Origin: Escherichia coli
Lineage (GTDB): Bacteria > Pseudomonadota > Gammaproteobacteria > Enterobacterales > Enterobacteriaceae
Reading direction: 5' to 3' (one strand)
Length of the DNA: 64,000 nt
Assembly: GCA_002099625.1 (NCBI GenBank)
Contig: GCA_002099625.1_4857.1
Shown here: piece by piece, positions 40,798 to 56,208 of the stretch
Layout of the letters: each line of letters opens with the position of its first letter
Position numbering within the stretch: position 1 is the first letter of the stretch
Position numbers and translations under genes: made by a program
The notes under the pieces: generated by a model
Told to the model about the DNA's origin: nothing
The model's input: the letters and a program-made list of their open reading frames with translations, nothing else
Database searches by the model: none

Positions 40798-40843
40798 AAA
40801 GCACTACCCTCTCCTTCGGGAGAGGGTAGCCTTTTATTTTATT
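40793..40843. terminator. bidirectional intrinsic terminator between convergent genes
   Basis: Hairpin CTACCCTCTCC-ttcg-GGAGAGGGTAG (40804-40829) with CTTTTATTTTATTC downstream and an A-run upstream. Confidence 0.7.
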
Positions 40844-42572
40844 CGCCGTCAAGCATGTTTTTGCGATTATTGCCTTTCACCAACGGGTTACGTTTGGCCA
40901 GGTTCAGTATCGTCTGCAGTGTAGCGGCAGCACCGCAACAACGACGCACCAACGACAGGTTACGTCGCAAGCCGACGAAGAGGTCTTCATCCCCGTCTGG
41001 GGAGAATAACACCATCGAGAGTTCACGACCGTCGGTACGCAGGCCAGAAGGCTGATTAAGCTCATTCATGATGACTTCGCTAATCAGGTTAACGTATTCA
41101 ACGTTATCCTTGGTTGCTTTCTGGAACTGCTCCAACACTTTAATCGTGTTGTTAACCGCCTTATCCAGCGCACTGTAACGATTCAGGTTAGTCGCAGCGG
41201 TGTCGTTGGTAAAGCCTTGTTTACCTAACGTTACCACTACAGCCAGCAACTCACGTTCGTCACCAACCGATAACGTGCCTGCCTGGCGCATTTGCTCTAA
41301 GCACTCGCGTCCCAAGAACGCAGATGCTTGTGCGTTGACCAATACCTTACCAGGCACGAAGTCCACACCATCATCATGACCCACTAAACCACGAACTTTG
41401 TTTTCTGGGATAACGACCAAAGGTGCAGTAGCGTATTCGAATCCTTTGCGGGAAACGTCGCTGATGATGAAGTTCATCGTGGTGTTCAGCTGCGCTAACG
41501 CCTGACCGAAAATAAGCGCGGTGTCGTGTGCTGCTTTGTTAACTTGCTTACCGTTGTGCGTGGTGGTTGAACCTTGCTGATTCTTAAAACCTTCGGCGAC
41601 GCTTGGGTCAATCATCGCTTTAAAGGCACTCTGGAGCGAGCCAAAGTAGCCGATAAGTTCGCTGGCAACATTCGACATCTGATGGAAGTTCAACAGGTTC
41701 GGAATACGCACACCGGCTTCGCGAGCAGACTTCGGTAACGCCTGCCAGGCTTTCTTACCCACTTCAATCGGGTAGATACCGTACGTCACGTTATGTTGTA
41801 ACAGGGTATCTAACAGATCGTGAATAACCTGCTGGCTTGACTGACGTTTCTTAGTGTAGCCTTTGAACAACTCAGTGAACGGCGAACGACCCAGTGCGCT
41901 GCTCAAGTCGTTCAGATACTCTTCCGCGTTCATGTTCGTAAACACTTCGTCGGCCATCGCGATAGCCAAGTTCAGGTTTTCCAGGTCACGACCTTTCAGA
42001 CCCTTAGAGGCTTCGATGTATGCATCTTTCACTGCGCTGATTTTCAGCTGACCGATGATAGTGTTTTCGGTCTGGGAGAAACTCTCTGCTTTTTCGCCGA
42101 CTTTCTCAGCGTAACCTTCGCCGTCGAATTCGCCATTACCAGCAAACCCGTTACCATTGCTGATAATCCAACCGATGATTTTGATAATCGCGGTCATGAT
42201 TAACACAACCAATCCCACTTTACCTGCATTTGCCCAGGATTCGAGCGCAACAATAGTCTCTTTCTGGTGCGTGCGGGTATAGTTCGAGGTCAGGATTTTG
42301 CGAACGGCTTCGGGAATTGTACCTGGGCGAGAAGATTCAACCGCGACGGCGACATCTTTCGACAGACCTGCGCGACGAACTTCGTCAAGAATCGCTTCAA
42401 TTTGCAGAATCAGTCGAGAGCCGTAGATTAAGTCGGCTTCGTTGCGTTGCATGTACAGATTGAGCTGGTTGACAGAATCAATACGCTCGGCCATACGTGA
42501 ACGCAGGACTTCACCGATCTCCCCCAAACGCCATTTGGGGTGGGTGGCGTTACCTGTCATTTCCATGCTCAT
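40839..42572 (-). CDS. hypothetical protein with one predicted transmembrane helix (577 aa)
   Basis: Long ORF; hydrophobic segment VGLVVLIMTAIIKIIGWII. Confidence 0.55.
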   Translation of the reverse strand: MSMEMTGNATHPKWRLGEIGEVLRSRMAERIDSVNQLNLYMQRNEADLIYGSRLILQIEAILDEVRRAGLSKDVAVAVESSRPGTIPEAVRKILTSNYTRTHQKETIVALESWANAGKVGLVVLIMTAIIKIIGWIISNGNGFAGNGEFDGEGYAEKVGEKAESFSQTENTIIGQLKISAVKDAYIEASKGLKGRDLENLNLAIAMADEVFTNMNAEEYLNDLSSALGRSPFTELFKGYTKKRQSSQQVIHDLLDTLLQHNVTYGIYPIEVGKKAWQALPKSAREAGVRIPNLLNFHQMSNVASELIGYFGSLQSAFKAMIDPSVAEGFKNQQGSTTTHNGKQVNKAAHDTALIFGQALAQLNTTMNFIISDVSRKGFEYATAPLVVIPENKVRGLVGHDDGVDFVPGKVLVNAQASAFLGRECLEQMRQAGTLSVGDERELLAVVVTLGKQGFTNDTAATNLNRYSALDKAVNNTIKVLEQFQKATKDNVEYVNLISEVIMNELNQPSGLRTDGRELSMVLFSPDGDEDLFVGLRRNLSLVRRCCGAAATLQTILNLAKRNPLVKGNNRKNMLDGE

Positions 42573-43012
42573 GAAATTTGCCCTTTCAATTCTGCCATGT
42601 AGAAACCAACCACTTCCATAAAGCGGCTAATCCACAGACCGACGGTTTCCCAGATATCTTCCCCGAGTGCCTGGTTGAAAATCTCACGAACTGAGAAACT
42701 TTCCAGAGCTTTAGCGCCACCATACACGTTGCAGTAACGATTGCAGTACAGACCCACGGTCATGTCCTCAATCACGCCCAAATCAACACAGTACAGCTCG
42801 TTAACGTCAGAGACGATGTTACGCATTACCGGACGTAAAAACGTCCCAGCGGCCTCTGCAGCGCCATATTGGCCATTATCAGCCAGTACCGCGTTATACG
42901 CCAGTGAGAAAGCAACCAGGCCGGTCAAAGCACGTTGGGCGTGTACACCTTTCCCTTCGTTGGTACGTTTGAAATCCAGTACCAGGTTATTTAAAGAAAC
43001 TTTATGCGTCAT
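42569..43012 (-). CDS. hypothetical protein
   Basis: 147-aa ORF, ATGA-coupled. Confidence 0.5.
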   Translation of the reverse strand: MTHKVSLNNLVLDFKRTNEGKGVHAQRALTGLVAFSLAYNAVLADNGQYGAAEAAGTFLRPVMRNIVSDVNELYCVDLGVIEDMTVGLYCNRYCNVYGGAKALESFSVREIFNQALGEDIWETVGLWISRFMEVVGFYMAELKGQIS

Positions 43013-43027
43013 GTTAAGTACCCTTAC

Positions 43028-44380
43028 TTAGGAAGAAGTCGCCTGACTAAGCTTCGCAGAAGCCACACGCAGGTCATTAGAAAGATAGCGTTCCATCGTA
43101 CGCTGATAATCCACCCCAGCACGTTCACGACGACCACCAGGGGTCAACGTTTTCATGATGAAGCTAAAGACGTTGTCTTTGTCTTTCACGGTTTTCAGTA
43201 ATTCGTCGATAGACGCAATGCCCTGCAGAATACGTTTACGATGTTCGTTCGCTTCTTTCGTGGTGCTACCTTTTAAGGTGTTCAGCTCCTCCACTAAGTT
43301 ACGACGCATCGTCTCAAAACGTTCCTGCGGCGGATCGTAGATGGTGTTGCGTGGGTCGTTCACAATCAGGCCGAACGCGACTGAGATAGTCGTGAAGAAC
43401 AGGCCGACTGGGTTGGACGATGCCACAATCAGCAGCGAAACGTTAAGCATTTCCAGCATCAGATGCACACCGTAGTTCATGTACGACGCGTTCCGGCAGA
43501 GATAGAATTGAGACGTTTCGATTTTGTACAGGGCTGACGCCAGGTACGGGGCTGCACCAAAGCGAGCTGCGAAGTCATCTGCAGCACGTTCCCAGGTACG
43601 GTTAGCGAACCCTTCCGAACCGGTAACAAACGGACGCTCAAGCAGAATGTCTGTCACCAGATGCATGTAGATGTTCTCTTTAGACATCTCTTTGCAGATA
43701 GTTTCCGGCTGATTCACTTTGGTGTTCAGCATACGTTCAACGTCTTTTACGACTTTCAAACGCACAGTCGGGTCTTCGGTTTGCATCATGCGGTTCGCTG
43801 CAGCATCCGCAATCAGGTTCGTTACTACCGTACGCATCAAGGTACGGAAATAGTAATAGACGTGGCCGACTTCATGTAGAATAATCGCCGCGACTTCTAA
43901 ATCCGTTAACTCGATACCGGTCAGTAGTTTCGGGGTCAGCCAAAGTGGGGACGGCACCTTGCTGAGTTCGCCTGAAAGCTTCGCATTTTTATCGTCGAAC
44001 TCGCCGTTCAGCTCGTTCTCTTTTAAGAACTTACTGTAGACATCCAGGTCGGTGTTGCCCTGCACCATCTTGCGTTGCAGGTCGGCGATGATTGGGTTGT
44101 TCGCGTCGAGCTTCGGTGGCTCCACACCCGCAAACACAACGTCCGCCACACCTAAGTCGGACCCGTTACGAGGCAGGACTGTAATACCGTTGTTGTCAAA
44201 GACCCAGGCAGCAATACCAGAACTCTGATAACCCGCTGGCGAGAAGTCGCCCGCATCACGGAACTTACGTACCACTTCCGCCAAAGAGGCGAGTTTCTTT
44301 TTATCTTGGAATCCGATGGACTCCGAGGCCACGGCTTTCGCGTCGGCCAACGAGGTTATGTGCTTTTGCCAGTGTCCCAT
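43028..44380 (-). CDS. HExxH zinc-metallopeptidase-like protein
   Basis: 450-aa ORF containing AAIILHEVGHVYYY (HExxH in a hydrophobic helix context); the third zinc ligand was not identified. Confidence 0.45.
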   Translation of the reverse strand: MGHWQKHITSLADAKAVASESIGFQDKKKLASLAEVVRKFRDAGDFSPAGYQSSGIAAWVFDNNGITVLPRNGSDLGVADVVFAGVEPPKLDANNPIIADLQRKMVQGNTDLDVYSKFLKENELNGEFDDKNAKLSGELSKVPSPLWLTPKLLTGIELTDLEVAAIILHEVGHVYYYFRTLMRTVVTNLIADAAANRMMQTEDPTVRLKVVKDVERMLNTKVNQPETICKEMSKENIYMHLVTDILLERPFVTGSEGFANRTWERAADDFAARFGAAPYLASALYKIETSQFYLCRNASYMNYGVHLMLEMLNVSLLIVASSNPVGLFFTTISVAFGLIVNDPRNTIYDPPQERFETMRRNLVEELNTLKGSTTKEANEHRKRILQGIASIDELLKTVKDKDNVFSFIMKTLTPGGRRERAGVDYQRTMERYLSNDLRVASAKLSQATSS

Positions 44381-44450
44381 TTAGACGTTCCTTTTAGAAA
44401 ATACGTTACCCACAAATCAGTATAGCAGACACCATATTTGAGAGTAGACC

Positions 44451-46235
44451 ATGGAAATCAATACCTATTACGCACCCGAGGATGTCATCGCTAAAGAGTG
44501 CAAGCACGTCGCTTATGCGACGGACGAAGAAAAAGAAAATGACTTTGTCCTCATCAAAGAGGTCATCCATACTAAGGATGGCAGGCTTATCCCGCGCTTG
44601 GTAATGCGTGAGAATTTAAAGCGTCCGGTGTACGTTACCCGTGAAGAATATCGTAACCACCAGGAGAAAAAAGAGTTCGAAGAAAAAGGAAAATGTCAAG
44701 AACTCTGGACTACTGATGCGCAGATGGCGAAGACGTTGCAGATGGGTTTAGGTGCGCGTTTCCCTGACCCGAAAAAGAACCTGCGGCGTGTTTGTACTAG
44801 CCCGTACGTTTATTGGGCCGACTTACCGATTACCAGCTGGATTAAACAGAAATACTTAAAACGCTGGCCGAACAACATCAGTCCTAACCGTCTTTGCGTA
44901 TACGACGTGGAGACCAACGAAAAGGACGGCACGAAGGAACCCTGGATCGTGTCATTTATCTTAGATGATGAAATCCATTTCTTTGGTGCTAAGAACTATA
45001 TGGACCGTATCGGTAAAAACGCGGAAGAAGTCATTCTCAAAAAAGCACAGGAACTGTTAAGCAAAATCGAGTTCGACGAGAAAGACAAAAAGACTGGCGA
45101 GAAGGTGACAAAGACCAAAGACATTATCAGTGGTTATAAAATCTTCACCTATACCTGCGCTACAGCAGGGCAGTGTATCGTCAGGATGTTCGAAGAGATT
45201 CATCCGCGTCTTCCTGATTTGCTGGTCGCATGGAACCACCAGTTCGATATTTCACGCATGTTAGAAACCTTGCAGAAAGAAGGTATCGATCCGCTGGGTG
45301 TCTTTAACCATCCGGATGTGCCGGAGAAATACCGTCGTCTGTGGTTTAAAGAAGACCAGGCGAACAAAAAGACGGAATCCAAGTCACTCACCAAAGCACC
45401 GTCTCAACAGTGGCACGTACTCTACTGTACTGCGTCTTTCTACTGTGTGGATGCCATGGTGCTGTTTCGTTCGTTGCGTGTCCACGAAGGGCAACGTCCT
45501 TCGTACAAGTTATCTGCCATACTGTACACCGAACTCGGTTTACACAAACTCGACATTCCTGGACTGCCGTATGAAGATAACCTGCAATGGCACATAAAAG
45601 CACAACGGGACTACCCTGCCGAATATGCCGTATACAACATGATGGATAACTTGTTAATCGTGTTGCTGGATAAGAAGACGAACGACCTGTCTTCAGCAAT
45701 ATCCATTCTGGCAGGTTTCTCAATGTACGATATCTTCCCGTCGCTACCAAAACGTATCTGCGTGGCCTTTACCTATTATCTGTATGACAAAGGATACGTC
45801 ATCGGTTCCGTAGGGTCTGCAATGCGTAACGATTACGATGAAGAGGTTATCGGTACAGACGGTTGGATTGTTACCCTGACGGCATGTATGAATGCTGAGA
45901 ACGGTCTGAATAACATTCTGGAGGAGATTGACGAATATTACTCTGCGTTCCGTGGTCAAACTGCGGATGCGGACTTAACCCAGGCTTACCCATCGGCCAC
46001 AAACATGATGAACCAGTCTCGTGAGACCACACTCATTGAGCTGCTATCCATCAATGGGGTTAGTGAAGAGATTCGACGTCGCACGGGCGTCAACTTAACT
46101 GCTGGGCGAGTTAATGCCATGGAAATAGCGACAGACTTCTTCTGCTTACCGGACAAAGACACTGTCCTGTCTACGTTCTTACGTAAGCAAGGGGAAGTAG
46201 TGACAGAGCCTATGGAGTACATCTGCGGGTTCTAA
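44451..46235 (+). CDS. DnaQ-like 3'-5' exonuclease domain protein, probable N-terminal fragment of a split family-B DNA polymerase
   Basis: Exo I LCVYDVETNE (D-x-E), Exo II AWNHQFDISRM (N-x2-3-FD), Exo III YAVYNMMDNL (Y-x3-D) in the correct order and spacing; no clear polymerase motifs A/B/C in this 594-aa ORF. Confidence 0.6.
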   Translation: MEINTYYAPEDVIAKECKHVAYATDEEKENDFVLIKEVIHTKDGRLIPRLVMRENLKRPVYVTREEYRNHQEKKEFEEKGKCQELWTTDAQMAKTLQMGLGARFPDPKKNLRRVCTSPYVYWADLPITSWIKQKYLKRWPNNISPNRLCVYDVETNEKDGTKEPWIVSFILDDEIHFFGAKNYMDRIGKNAEEVILKKAQELLSKIEFDEKDKKTGEKVTKTKDIISGYKIFTYTCATAGQCIVRMFEEIHPRLPDLLVAWNHQFDISRMLETLQKEGIDPLGVFNHPDVPEKYRRLWFKEDQANKKTESKSLTKAPSQQWHVLYCTASFYCVDAMVLFRSLRVHEGQRPSYKLSAILYTELGLHKLDIPGLPYEDNLQWHIKAQRDYPAEYAVYNMMDNLLIVLLDKKTNDLSSAISILAGFSMYDIFPSLPKRICVAFTYYLYDKGYVIGSVGSAMRNDYDEEVIGTDGWIVTLTACMNAENGLNNILEEIDEYYSAFRGQTADADLTQAYPSATNMMNQSRETTLIELLSINGVSEEIRRRTGVNLTAGRVNAMEIATDFFCLPDKDTVLSTFLRKQGEVVTEPMEYICGF

Positions 46236-52078: not shown

Positions 52079-52462
52079 TTAACTTGCATCGTGTGGAACA
52101 GTCACCCAATCGTGCCATTTTTCAGAGTAAAGCCGATAAGCCATCTTTGGATTCTGATCGACGCTACCGGCCGGGTTCTCATTCCACAACACGTACGTAT
52201 ATAACTCGTACGACGAAGTGTTACGGATACTTGACGTGCGGGTGACGTAGTACGTCAACCCGCGTTGGTTAAGGAACAGGCCGCTGTAATGTTCAGTGAC
52301 CATGTAGTAGTGAAACGCCTGGTTGATAGTGGCGTCGGTGCAGAGTTTCTTAGCGACGTCTTCTACGCCGGGATACGCCTTTAGAATGTTTTCGAGAAAA
52401 CTTGCTAAAGTCATTCCGATGTAGGGTGGCAGCGGCTCTGCTGGACGCGGCGGAGTGAGCAT
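52079..52462 (-). CDS. hypothetical protein
   Basis: 127-aa ORF; overlaps the 3' end of the helicase ORF in another frame, so the exact start is uncertain. Confidence 0.35.
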   Translation of the reverse strand: MLTPPRPAEPLPPYIGMTLASFLENILKAYPGVEDVAKKLCTDATINQAFHYYMVTEHYSGLFLNQRGLTYYVTRTSSIRNTSSYELYTYVLWNENPAGSVDQNPKMAYRLYSEKWHDWVTVPHDAS

Positions 52463-54056
52463 GTGATTTCCTTACAACGTAGGGGGATGTCGCGATACGG
52501 AACGACAATACGACATCCTTGAGTGATTTCTGGCGGGCATTCAGGTAATTGCAATGCTTCGGTACGTTATACGCATGGAATAACCACACCGTTGGGTCTA
52601 TTTCACCCCATTCGTTGTGGAGAATCTTACGTGGACGACCGGCCATCTGTTCGTTCAGTTGCTGGTCTTCTACCGGGGTTGAAATGTACATGTGTACCAA
52701 CCCAGGTTTATCGACCGCAGTCCCCGCTTTCCCCGGTGTGGAGATAGAGAAGTCTGCTTGGATAAAGTCGTCATACGAATCGCCTGCATTATATTTCGCC
52801 ACCATCAACGGATGGAATACAGGGTCACGCGATAACTTATCTTTCACATACTCGGTAAAGAACTCACACATCGCTACCGTAGCAAAGAGTATCAAACATT
52901 TTTGGCCAGGTTGATACCGTTTAAGGAACGATTTCTCAACCACATCCCAGATCATGTTCGCGTATTCTAAATGCAAGTTCTCTTTAATCAGCTTCCCTTC
53001 GAAGAGTTTGTGGTTATACGGCGTCATCTTCGACGCCCACCACGCAAACTTCTTATCATCCAGTCGATAGTACAACGCCTTCACGTCAACCACCGGAATG
53101 ATTGGAATACTGATTCGGTACTCCATTGGGAAACGTTCTAAATACCGCTCCGCGATAAAGGCTTTACTGCTACCCGGCTTAAGGGTTGCAGACATCTCTA
53201 TCGATGCCGGAGGGTTCAACATTATACCAGCCATGTAAACGAGGTGAAAATGCTCGTGCACCTCATCCATCGCCACCAGACCCACACCCAGAACATCATA
53301 AAACGTATCCAGGTCCACAGGGTTAGTCGCAGCAGTGTTAATGTACTCCTTCAGGAAACGCTGTAGAGAGACCGTGGGGAGGATTATTACCTTAATACCA
53401 CGACTATCTAACTCTCCCGACTTACCCATCTCCAGCGCGTCGTAAATCGCCTGTACGCCTGTACAAACTAACACCTCGTCACGAAGTATACGAAGTCCTG
53501 TTTCATCATCACAGACGTCAAACAGCCATTTGGGAACGTACGACGGACGGTGAATCAATGCGGTACGGGTTCCCCGTTTAACCATCGACTTCATACACGA
53601 CTTCGTCTTCCCACGACCTGTCTGAATGGCGAAGATTGTCTGTGGTCGGTTTGGATCGGACGCTGCATCCACAACCTCGTTCTGATAGTAGAAACGCGAC
53701 TCCGGATCGCTTTCTACCATCGAGAAGCCGTAGTTATCAAATGTACAGCAGTAAGGTGTTCCTCGCTCAGGATGGTGCTCTGTCAGCTTGTACTGAAAAG
53801 CATATTCAATTGCTGCTCGTTGGAGGATATGTTTAATCTTCTCAGCGAACACTTTATGGAAAATGAACGTCCTTAAAGACGGAATGTGGGCGTAGTACGC
53901 GTCACCGCGTTCCGTAGTTATTCGTCCATGTTGCTTGCCCATCTTTGGGGCGTGCATATTCTCTTCGGCCCACGCGAGTATGGCCCTTTCAGCCTGGCGG
54001 ATAGGGACTTCAACCCGTACCCCCATACTCGTGTAAGTCATTTGAATTTCTACCAT
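52350..54056 (-). CDS. superfamily-2 DExH-box helicase
   Basis: Walker A AIQTGRGKTKS; Walker B/DExH LVAMDEVHEH; motif III MSATLK; motif VI-like QMAGRPRK. Track start at 54113 translates the terminator hairpin; the ATG at 54056 (MVEIQMTYTS...) is the likelier start. Confidence 0.7.
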   Translation of the reverse strand: MVEIQMTYTSMGVRVEVPIRQAERAILAWAEENMHAPKMGKQHGRITTERGDAYYAHIPSLRTFIFHKVFAEKIKHILQRAAIEYAFQYKLTEHHPERGTPYCCTFDNYGFSMVESDPESRFYYQNEVVDAASDPNRPQTIFAIQTGRGKTKSCMKSMVKRGTRTALIHRPSYVPKWLFDVCDDETGLRILRDEVLVCTGVQAIYDALEMGKSGELDSRGIKVIILPTVSLQRFLKEYINTAATNPVDLDTFYDVLGVGLVAMDEVHEHFHLVYMAGIMLNPPASIEMSATLKPGSSKAFIAERYLERFPMEYRISIPIIPVVDVKALYYRLDDKKFAWWASKMTPYNHKLFEGKLIKENLHLEYANMIWDVVEKSFLKRYQPGQKCLILFATVAMCEFFTEYVKDKLSRDPVFHPLMVAKYNAGDSYDDFIQADFSISTPGKAGTAVDKPGLVHMYISTPVEDQQLNEQMAGRPRKILHNEWGEIDPTVWLFHAYNVPKHCNYLNARQKSLKDVVLSFRIATSPYVVRKSHAHSAASSRAAATLHRNDFSKFSRKHSKGVSRRRRRR

Positions 54057-54070
54057 GCTGCCCCTCTTCG

Positions 54071-54099
54071 CACAAAAAAAGAGGGGCGCAAGGCCCCTC
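54071..54099 (-). terminator. intrinsic terminator downstream of 54103..56208, overlapping the helicase RBS
   Basis: Hairpin GAGGGGC-gcaa-GGCCCCTC (54081-54099) followed on the minus strand by TTTTTTTGTG; the downstream CGAAGAGGGG can alternatively pair with the 3' arm. Confidence 0.55.
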
Positions 54100-54102
54100 G
54101 GT

Positions 54103-56208
54103 TTACAACTCAATTACCACAGCGGCTCCTAGGTCATCGTACAACGATGCCGGGATTTTGTACTCGGTATAAAAACCAACGCGATCGATATTCCCCTGCT
54201 GTCCTTCAAACAACAACATCGGAATTGCCGAGCGCAAACTAATGAGCGTGTTGTGATCGACAAACCGTTTCCCGGTGGCATTAGTAGAATCCTCACTGTC
54301 AAATCCTACTGCCGGGAACGGATTGGTTGGCGACTCTACACGAGATATCGCCAACATAATCGCAATATGCGTCATCGGTATACCACTCAGCTTACGCTGG
54401 ATATACTTAAACGTGTCCATCAACGCATAAGTACACTGTTTCTCTGTAGCACCACCCATCTCAACCAACGTCACTGGTTTCACACGACCTTGTTTCTTGT
54501 TCAGCTTCACAGTCGATGCCGTGTTGATGATTTCCACAATGTCTTCGTTCTTATCGGCAGCAATCGAACGGAGCTTGGTTTCTAAGCCGGCTACGAACTC
54601 TGCCATCGATTCAGAACGGTTGGTGTAGACCAGGACCGGGTGTTTCGGGTTCCATCCTTTTAAGGGGATTTCTACTGTCTTCTTCTCGATACGAATGTTC
54701 GCTCGTTGTTTCAAGAAGTAGTGCAGGAACGGTTTAGAGAAGTTCCCACAAACACCCATTCGCACATCGATAGAATCCGCAGCGATTATCTGCCCATCTT
54801 CTAAACGACGTTGGAAAGTTAAGTCGGTGATTTCTGGTAATGCCGTTTCATCAATTGCATCGAGATCTTCATGATACGCAATCTGGCTCAGCTCCGAATA
54901 AATTTTGTCGGTAACAACCAACTCGTATTCTGACCAATTCCCACGCTGTGGTTTTGGCAGCAAGCACAACCCTTTCAGAGAGTTATGTTTGTATTCGGTC
55001 ATATACTCACGCATACGTGGGGTGAGTACCAGGTTGAGCAGATAACGCAAGAAGTCAAGGTGCTTGGTAGAGAGAATTCCCTGTGTACCCTTTTCCGAGA
55101 TGGACGTGGACGCCAGGTGACCTGGTGACGTACCTTCAGAGAGGTTATAAATCAAATCCCCCATACAGGTCGCACAGATGGACTGATTCGCCATCTCTTT
55201 ACAGGTCATGGCACTACGGAAGACCAGCGGTTTGCCAACCAGGTCTGCGTATCCACCTTTCTCAAATCTCAACCACGGACCATTATCGCCTTCTAAACGA
55301 TAACGCATCCCCACCATCGCTTTATAGGCACGCTCATCCAGCTGCGTATCCTTAAACGTGTAGCGGTGTGCGTGAGTTGTACCGCAGTCGTCGTACGTGA
55401 AATACATCAGTACGTTTGCTGCCAACTGCAGTTTACGTGAGGCGTATTCTGCTTCGGCAATCTTGTCAGTGTTGTACAAGTGGGAACGTGAAGTTGCACC
55501 GGATTCTTTCAAACGCGAAATAACCGAGTGCATTCCGGTAAAGAAGCCTTCCCACACCTGATTGGTGTATACACGTGAGTCAATTTCTGACGTTTTACCA
55601 CGCACGAAGGCTTGCAGTACCTGGTTCATCTTCACAGTACCGTCCAGTACCGACATCACGACCGGGTTATACCGTAGCGCAGGGTCTTTGAAGATTTTCT
55701 CGATAAGCTTGTACGCTTCTTCAACCATATCCTGACCATCTTCATCGTAGCCAGTAGGGTATTGCACTTCCCACTGACGGATGAGTTCGAAGTTCGGGTG
55801 GTCGTAGATCTCCATCATCGTATCAAAGTCGATTGTCGTACAATAGGACAGCAAGTTCTTCACTGTCATGTTGAACGCATCGGCGTAGACATGTTGACTC
55901 AGGATATAACGCGTTTCAGCAAGGTCGACACCTGCTTTACGGGCCAGTACCGCTGCTTCCGACATAAAGTCCAGATGCAGGTCATCTGTTGCTACCTGAC
56001 CTGGACGATACGCCATGGTCGATGGAGTGGGCACCTGCGGATACAGACGCGACACACCCCAATACGGCCAGCTGAGTTTGATGTGGCGACTAGACATTTC
56101 CAACGACTTACCATCGTCGAATGTCACGTAATAACGCCCGCGTAGTTTCCACACCTGATCAGAGTTAAGCATACGCAAATCACGTACGTGTACAGAACGA
56201 CCCGCCAT
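54103..56208 (-). CDS. hypothetical large protein (701 aa); possible RNA polymerase beta-prime-like C-terminal fragment
   Basis: TAATG overlap with the RNAP beta fragment gene; EKGTQGILSTKH weakly resembles the beta-prime trigger-loop motif GTQLTMRTFH. The RNAP assignment is tentative and the NADFDGD motif is absent. Confidence 0.5.
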   Translation of the reverse strand: MAGRSVHVRDLRMLNSDQVWKLRGRYYVTFDDGKSLEMSSRHIKLSWPYWGVSRLYPQVPTPSTMAYRPGQVATDDLHLDFMSEAAVLARKAGVDLAETRYILSQHVYADAFNMTVKNLLSYCTTIDFDTMMEIYDHPNFELIRQWEVQYPTGYDEDGQDMVEEAYKLIEKIFKDPALRYNPVVMSVLDGTVKMNQVLQAFVRGKTSEIDSRVYTNQVWEGFFTGMHSVISRLKESGATSRSHLYNTDKIAEAEYASRKLQLAANVLMYFTYDDCGTTHAHRYTFKDTQLDERAYKAMVGMRYRLEGDNGPWLRFEKGGYADLVGKPLVFRSAMTCKEMANQSICATCMGDLIYNLSEGTSPGHLASTSISEKGTQGILSTKHLDFLRYLLNLVLTPRMREYMTEYKHNSLKGLCLLPKPQRGNWSEYELVVTDKIYSELSQIAYHEDLDAIDETALPEITDLTFQRRLEDGQIIAADSIDVRMGVCGNFSKPFLHYFLKQRANIRIEKKTVEIPLKGWNPKHPVLVYTNRSESMAEFVAGLETKLRSIAADKNEDIVEIINTASTVKLNKKQGRVKPVTLVEMGGATEKQCTYALMDTFKYIQRKLSGIPMTHIAIMLAISRVESPTNPFPAVGFDSEDSTNATGKRFVDHNTLISLRSAIPMLLFEGQQGNIDRVGFYTEYKIPASLYDDLGAAVVIEL

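Follow-up and report, generated by a model that had tools for sequence, protein, structure and literature searches.

Genomic context and identity of the gene

The gene under study occupies positions 43028-44380 on the minus strand of a 64,000-nt stretch of the Escherichia coli assembly GCA_002099625.1, referred to here in its entirety as the window. It was called as an open reading frame (ORF) of 450 aa with an ATG start, and a Shine-Dalgarno-like AAGGA can be read in the sequence at 44389-44393 of the same strand, 8-9 nt 5' of the start codon. Two further minus-strand genes lie downstream, one of 147 aa (42569-43012, PHROG 8529) and one of 577 aa (40839-42572, PHROG 8131). On the other side, a DNA polymerase subunit gene is divergently oriented, with a piece of an RNA polymerase beta-subunit gene beyond it.

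The window shows 98-99% nucleotide identity to Salmonella phage SPN3US and to other, closely related 240-kb jumbo phages of the genus Seoulvirus. The 450-aa product shares 99.8% amino acid identity with the SPN3US protein encoded at 43079-44431, annotated as "putative virion structural protein 1", and matches PHROG 2767 over its full length (E = 1.7e-167, aa 1-447 against profile positions 1-441/442). Gene numbers were assigned from the published start of gp47 in SPN3US, nt 44887/44899 (Ali et al. 2017, PMC5694885), so that the 577-aa ORF is gp47, an essential head "ejection" protein, the 147-aa ORF is gp46, and the 450-aa ORF is gp45. The latter is thus SPN3US gp45 (YP_009153339), a member of PHROG 2767, with SEGD1_047 (AMR59696.1) as its positional ortholog in a phage of the same species and phiKZ gp84 as its distant counterpart. 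The window gene is the same as SPN3US gp45 and SEGD1_047, at the same genomic position and with no gene-level difference; the layout of a divergent polymerase gene and gp45 followed by two same-strand head genes is identical in the window, SPN3US and SEGD1.

In phiKZ, the ortholog gp84 is 27% identical and keeps HEIGH, EQLAD, the hydrophobic hairpin and an S-N-E10 cleavage site, features that are described below for gp45. The phiKZ genes gp84-85-86 also correspond in order and size to gp45-46-47 (gp85, 149 aa; gp86, 422 aa; AF399011, 5921-7649). The homology of the two downstream pairs that this order led us to expect was not borne out, because pairwise BLASTP detected no similarity of phiKZ gp85 and gp86 to gp46 and gp47, and the correspondence is positional only. 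The phiKZ genes could be either very divergent orthologs or non-homologous replacements.

Most database records label gp45 and its homologs simply as "virion structural protein", and several GenBank relatives, both close and distant, carry the names "beta-barrel assembly-enhancing protease" or "putative M48 family lipoprotein protease". The SEGD1 ortholog has been described as a [quoted passage not shown] (Iyer et al. 2021, PMC7824862), so that the core of the present finding had already been predicted computationally. A literature search returned no experimental study of gp45 activity, zinc binding or role, no functional study of phiKZ gp84 (PHIKZ084), and no report of injection of either protein. 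PHIKZ084 appears as expression counts only in an antisense-oligomer study, and neither a preprint on the Goslar virion structure nor a 2026 jumbo-phage review mentions a metalloprotease. Two of the literature matches to "gp84" concern proteins of that name in unrelated phages and were discarded.

Conservation of the HExxH motif and its partner

The gp45 protein carries a single HExxH, the HEVGH at aa 169-173 (positions 43862-43876, minus strand; H169, E170 and H173) in the context AAIILHEVGHVYYYF. A preliminary description, made from the DNA alone, had called the product an HExxH metallopeptidase-like protein on the strength of this one motif in a hydrophobic helix. The count and the setting were both borne out, since HEVGH occurs once in the 450 residues and falls within helix 160-199 of the AlphaFold2 model. 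Taken by itself the motif carries little weight. From the composition of the long ORFs in the window, HExxH is expected by chance 0.015 times per 450-aa protein and 0.85 times over all of them, and two were observed. The other is HEHFH in a minus-strand ORF at 52350-54113, a DNA helicase (phrog_16, E = 1.3e-58), where it was dismissed as a chance occurrence and provides a useful negative control. As the bare motif does not exceed chance, the significance of the one in gp45 comes from its conservation and from profile matches.

Relatives were collected by a word-indexed search, which gave 35 hits, followed by a profile search run exhaustively over 1.84 billion representatives, which returned 2,426 clusters at E <= 1e-3, of which 960 remained at E <= 1e-30. 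Nearly all of these are 400-460 residues long and match gp45 end to end. In alignments of 100-141 relatives that are 21-66% identical to gp45 (mean column identity 25-29%), only a handful of columns never vary, namely G137, H169, E170, G172, H173, E264, D268 and R354; E20 reaches 99-100%. E264 and D268 belong to the segment ERAAD (43577-43591, minus strand), which fits the E-x-x-A-D motif of M48 peptidases; position 267 is A or S in 139 of 141 relatives. The family thus keeps HExGH and an E-x-x-[A/S]-D about 90 residues further on, and little else, and in these alignments H169, E170, G172, H173, E264 and D268 are under strict selection.

A further motif, Y-D-x-P-x-x-R (Y348, D349, P351 and R354; 43319-43339, minus strand), directly follows the hydrophobic hairpin and is nearly as conserved as the catalytic residues, with R354 invariant, D349 kept in 98% and Y348 in 94% of the sequences. 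No counterpart of this motif was found in M48 enzymes.

Affinity to the M48 peptidases

The only relevant Pfam match of gp45 is Peptidase_M48 over aa 152-288 (E = 0.0044), at 17.3 bits against a gathering threshold of 20.3 bits. When 100 divergent relatives were scanned singly, 43 matched Peptidase_M48 at E <= 0.01 (best 2e-5), and no other Pfam family recurred in more than two of them. A single-sequence search of the PDB sequences with gp45 yielded only spurious exportin matches, so that a family profile was needed. The profile built from 140 sequences identified human ZMPSTE24 (E = 4e-5) among all PDB sequences with both motifs aligned: the family HElGH to HELGH, and r-s-w-E-q-l-A-D-q-F-A to R-R-F-E415-F-Q-A-D-A-F-A. 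The chain of the ZMPSTE24 E336A mutant scored 6 bits lower against this profile. In ZMPSTE24, H335, H339 and E415 are the zinc ligands and E336 is the catalytic base. By this alignment, H169 and H173 are the predicted first two zinc ligands of gp45 and E170 the predicted catalytic base, while E264, aligned with E415, is the predicted third ligand. The search for a third zinc ligand recommended in the preliminary description therefore points, at the level of aligned sequences, to E264 in helix 256-273.

A profile-profile comparison (hhalign) of the family with the E. coli K-12 M48 set (HtpX, BepA, LoiP and YcaL) gave a probability of 91.9% and E = 6.8e-7 over 36 columns (aa 138-175). This stretch takes in the signature block of M48 enzymes, running from the "NAFA" strand up to and including HExxH. 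The strand-turn block that precedes the active-site helix in M48 enzymes ("NAFA ... GLL ... E..A.. HE..H") is thus present in gp45. Among the NCBIfam models, gp45 leaves only a 12.8-bit trace to HtpX. Four independent tests, namely Pfam, the Pfam matches of the relatives, the family profile against the PDB and the profile-profile comparison, point to M48 at the sequence level. Together with the invariant catalytic residues, the profile matches support the original view of gp45 as a metallopeptidase-like protein.

The peptidases grouped in MEROPS family M48 (Ste24/ZMPSTE24, HtpX, Oma1, BepA, LoiP and YcaL; PF01435; gluzincin clan MA) share with gp45 the HExxH motif, the glutamate helix with E-x-x-A-D downstream of it, the strand-turn-helix block in front of it, and hydrophobic, membrane-type segments. 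Unlike these enzymes, gp45 has an extra N-terminal domain of ~105 residues, a helical insert of roughly 90 residues between HExxH and ExxAD, and a C-terminal helical bundle of 100 residues; its hairpin follows the glutamate helix, whereas that of HtpX lies between the two motifs, and gp45 is packaged in a virus capsid with a leader that is removed by a protease. Since it falls below the curated Pfam threshold and has a distinct global architecture, gp45 is an M48-like outlier rather than a curated member of the family.

Against this background, the idea that HEVGH arose by chance in an unrelated helical protein can be given a probability close to nil. Such a motif would indeed be expected about 0.85 times in the long ORFs of the window, and the helicase supplies another; but in gp45 the motif and its correctly spaced ExxAD partner are fully invariant family-wide, and three profile methods independently lead to M48, by which this reading is already refuted.

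Predicted structure and the hydrophobic hairpin

The AlphaFold2 model of gp45, built on the 100-sequence alignment, reached a pLDDT of 91.2 and a pTM of 0.91. Residues 1-20 are disordered in the model (pLDDT ~50) and are followed by an N-terminal alpha/beta domain. The predicted M48-like catalytic core, delimited at aa 126-290 (43511-44005, minus strand) from the modelled secondary structure, Pfam and hhalign, runs through strands 126-129, 134-137 and 144-148, the HExxH helix 160-199, the helical insert and the E264 helix 256-273. Beyond the glutamate helix, two hydrophobic helices (303-320 and 324-340) lead into the C-terminal helical bundle.

These two helices form a conserved hydrophobic hairpin at aa 303-340 (43361-43474, minus strand), recognized by Kyte-Doolittle hydropathy and by the modelled helices. 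The 19-residue mean hydropathy rises to 1.64 in gp45 and to 1.93 in the family average; 96% of the relatives exceed 1.6, the classical transmembrane threshold, and their median maximum is 2.2 near the hairpin position. In the model, the hairpin is placed with high confidence inside the globule, and it may be no more than a buried part of the helical fold.

Foldseek searches of the PDB with the gp45 model placed ZMPSTE24/Ste24p at the top (E >= 0.07, TM ~0.16), and no solved protease gave a statistically significant global match. In BFVD, the remote structural relatives bear the names "Zincin protease", "Peptidase M48" and "BepA". These include the "Zincin protease" paralogs of Bacillus phage AR9 and "Peptidase M48" proteins of uncultured Myoviridae (BFVD/UniProt), which resemble gp45 over most of its length (Foldseek E 6e-6 to 2e-3, TM ~0.4) at only 13-16% identity. 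This comparison of models suggests that the packaged-peptidase architecture may extend to AR9-like jumbo phages.

Virion location and processing by gp245

In the published SPN3US virion proteome, gp45 is listed as "50.3 kDa (48.2 processed), Head. Processed at ASE-20" (Ali et al. 2017, Table 1, PMC5694885). Its SC/M of 2.99 compares with 1.29 for the 12-copy portal, and its spectral-count abundance lies above the portal and below the ~264-copy tail sheath (PMC5694885). It is accordingly a mid-abundance head protein present in tens of copies. A later study counts gp45, with its 20-residue propeptide, among the nine substrates of the prohead protease gp245 (2023, PMC10052503). The propeptide MGHWQKHITSLADAKAVASE (44321-44380, minus strand), shown by published mass spectrometry to be cut by gp245 after ASE-20, is followed directly by SIGF, and the N-terminus of the window protein therefore fits this cut exactly. 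E20 is conserved in 140 of 141 relatives, with S, A or G at P3 in 127 of 141, and the N-terminus of phiKZ gp84 reads MLHTIEISNE/V (the slash marks the cleavage site here and below). Since the cleavage-site Glu occurs in essentially every member and phiKZ gp84 has such a site, removal of the leader is an ancestral trait.

The low pLDDT of residues 1-20 indicates that the leader is flexible. It is short, and the model leaves it disordered instead of docking it on the active site. It resembles a T4-style capsid-targeting sequence, which it probably is, and not an inhibitory prodomain; the likeness to capsid-targeting sequences was also remarked upon by Ali et al. (PMC5694885).

The T4 gp21-type prohead serine proteases, SPN3US gp245 and phiKZ gp175, are located in the head and conserved in phiKZ-like phages, as is gp45, but their catalytic class and fold are unrelated to it, and no match of gp45 to the prohead protease family was found in Pfam (E <= 1) or PHROG (0.01). 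As gp245 processes gp45, the latter is a substrate of the prohead protease and not its paralog. The suggestion in the preliminary description that this family differs from the head-maturation proteases of phiKZ-type phages has thus held. Published mass spectrometry mapped 14 cleavage sites in SPN3US head proteins, every one of them consistent with the gp245 motif, and found 42 head proteins uncleaved; semi-tryptic termini in the phiKZ virion are enriched for the LSxE (S-A-G-x-E) signature only. The lack of any trace of a second specificity on virion proteins weakens the idea of a second maturation protease.

Putative fusion proteins and a possible connection to gp47

Eight metagenomic relatives are putative fusions of 800-1450 aa (P0054, P0067, P0084, P0097, P0125, P0134, P0158 and P0122). 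The gp45-like part is C-terminal in seven of them and N-terminal in P0122. All seven C-terminal fusions keep a [G/A/S/T]-x-E site at the junction (GME/A, AME/A, STE/S, TLE/S and others), which implies that the prohead protease would cut them as polyproteins. The extra regions gave no Pfam match. In P0067 and P0134, the segment ahead of the gp45-like part is similar to gp47 residues 52-126 (BLASTP ~3e-5, ~34 bits; PHROG 8131, 1.5e-6). The putative link between gp45 and gp47 is a weak one, since it is drawn from a similarity of ~34 bits in proteins predicted from metagenomes.

The gp47 protein has a published maturation site at ALE-111. A hydrophobic helix, VGLVVLIMTAIIKIIGWII, was observed at aa 119-137 with a Kyte-Doolittle value of 2.58, eight residues after this site, so that mature gp47 would begin almost directly with a transmembrane-grade segment.

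Proposed function

There is good support for regarding gp45 as an M48-like protein of the capsid whose catalytic residues are intact. From its sequence we infer that it is an active zinc peptidase; its site of action and its substrate are a matter of speculation. We propose, with a probability of roughly 60%, that gp45 is a packaged M48-type zinc metalloprotease that loses its leader to gp245, is probably ejected, and acts at the host inner membrane. In this scheme, gp45 is made with the flexible 20-residue leader, which gp245 clips after Ala-Ser-Glu20 during head maturation, as the published mass spectrometry shows. The mature 48-kDa protein would bind zinc through H169, H173 and E264 and use E170 as the catalytic base, roles that are predicted from the invariant motifs and from their alignment to ZMPSTE24 and HtpX. 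It would then probably be ejected with the DNA, insert into or dock on the host inner membrane, and, at the site of entry, cut either host proteins or phage proteins ejected at the same time, perhaps jointly with gp47.

The M48 enzymes characterised so far are known to be active at membranes, where their substrates are unfolded or membrane-associated. The membrane action of this family and the conserved hairpin, taken with the fact that gp245 accounts for all mapped cuts, suggest that head maturation is not the main job of gp45. The membrane substrates of M48 enzymes, the hairpin, the gp47 link and the missing second specificity likewise favour an enzyme that works at the host membrane after ejection. 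Against this stands the entry of Ali et al., who list gp45 under "Head" and not under "Head ejection" (PMC5694885).

A different role, suggested by Iyer et al. 2021 (PMC7824862), would keep the enzyme at work inside the capsid. After losing its leader, gp45 could serve as a second morphogenetic or clean-up protease that degrades freed propeptides or pieces of scaffold or makes extra maturation cuts and thereby clears space for the DNA. A head protein at tens of copies would suit this task, and cleavage of its leader by gp245 could place the two activities in order. Substrate would be at hand, as maturation of SPN3US frees propeptides of 111-254 residues from abundant proteins (PMC10052503). 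The published cleavage maps do not favour such an activity, given that gp245 accounts for 14 of 14 mapped SPN3US sites, that 42 head proteins are uncleaved, and that the phiKZ termini carry the LSxE/S-A-G-x-E signature only. Moreover, fragments of the gp47 propeptide are still detectable in wild-type virions, so that any clean-up would not be thorough (PMC5694885). The role would also leave the conserved transmembrane-grade hairpin unexplained. M48 enzymes favour extended peptide substrates, which accords with the digestion of propeptides. On balance, we consider a clean-up role rather unlikely. It is more improbable still that gp45 is a structural or scaffolding pseudo-enzyme that retains an ancestral protease fold, cleaves nothing and uses its metal site for stability only. 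The bare "virion structural protein" label of most records, the lack of activity reports in the literature search and a global architecture unlike that of any solved protease in the Foldseek comparison would all agree with such a protein. Pseudo-enzymes usually lose the catalytic base, but among 141 sequences with an overall identity of only ~25%, E170 never varies, and neither do the two His residues, the Glu predicted as third ligand or the ExxAD Asp.

Returning to the proposed action after ejection, a more specific version can be formulated tentatively, although we regard it as doubtful in its details. As an ejected effector, gp45 would lose its leader in the capsid, pass down the tail along with the DNA, insert its hairpin into the inner membrane or into the early-infection vesicle and, together with gp47, cleave host envelope proteins or co-ejected proteins. 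This version draws on the early-infection vesicle that encloses injected Chimalliviridae genomes and on the putative occurrence of gp45 and gp47 as one polyprotein in some phages. If it were true, genome delivery or the formation of the vesicle would depend on proteolysis by an ejected effector.

The phiKZ-like phages (Chimalliviridae) package more than 50 head proteins, most of them without a known function. Within this set, gp45 is conserved group-wide with a complete predicted catalytic site, and its phiKZ ortholog orf84 has no transposon insertions in the filtered essentiality table (PMC12676376, Table S2). The same Tn-seq paper reports polar-effect artefacts in the adjacent orf85-86, and the evidence for essentiality of orf84 is therefore suggestive only (PMC12676376). 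Knowing the substrate would explain either a step of capsid maturation or the first minutes of infection, when DNA and proteins are enclosed in the vesicle. As the gene and its zincin-like prediction are published, the value of the present analysis lies in a sharper, testable hypothesis that names the catalytic residues, the hairpin and the gp47 link. It refines "zincin-like" to M48-like with a named predicted third ligand, and adds the family-wide cleavage-site Glu, the transmembrane-grade hairpin after the core and the putative polyprotein fusions.

Variation at the locus among Seoulviruses

The SPLA and SPFM Seoulviruses have an extra hypothetical ORF of 141 aa (~460 bp) between gp45 and gp46, for instance at 729-1154 of the locus in Salmonella phage SPLA3 (OR413581.1). 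The ORF is absent from the window and from SPN3US, and its site corresponds to the gp45/gp46 junction near window positions 43012-43028. Several SPFM records, such as LR535901.1 and LR535908.1, match window positions 42500-44500 in 31-32 short pieces, and the gp45 homologs in these records appear truncated (P0028-P0034). The fragmentation resembles the outcome of indel-rich sequencing or assembly errors more than a biological feature.
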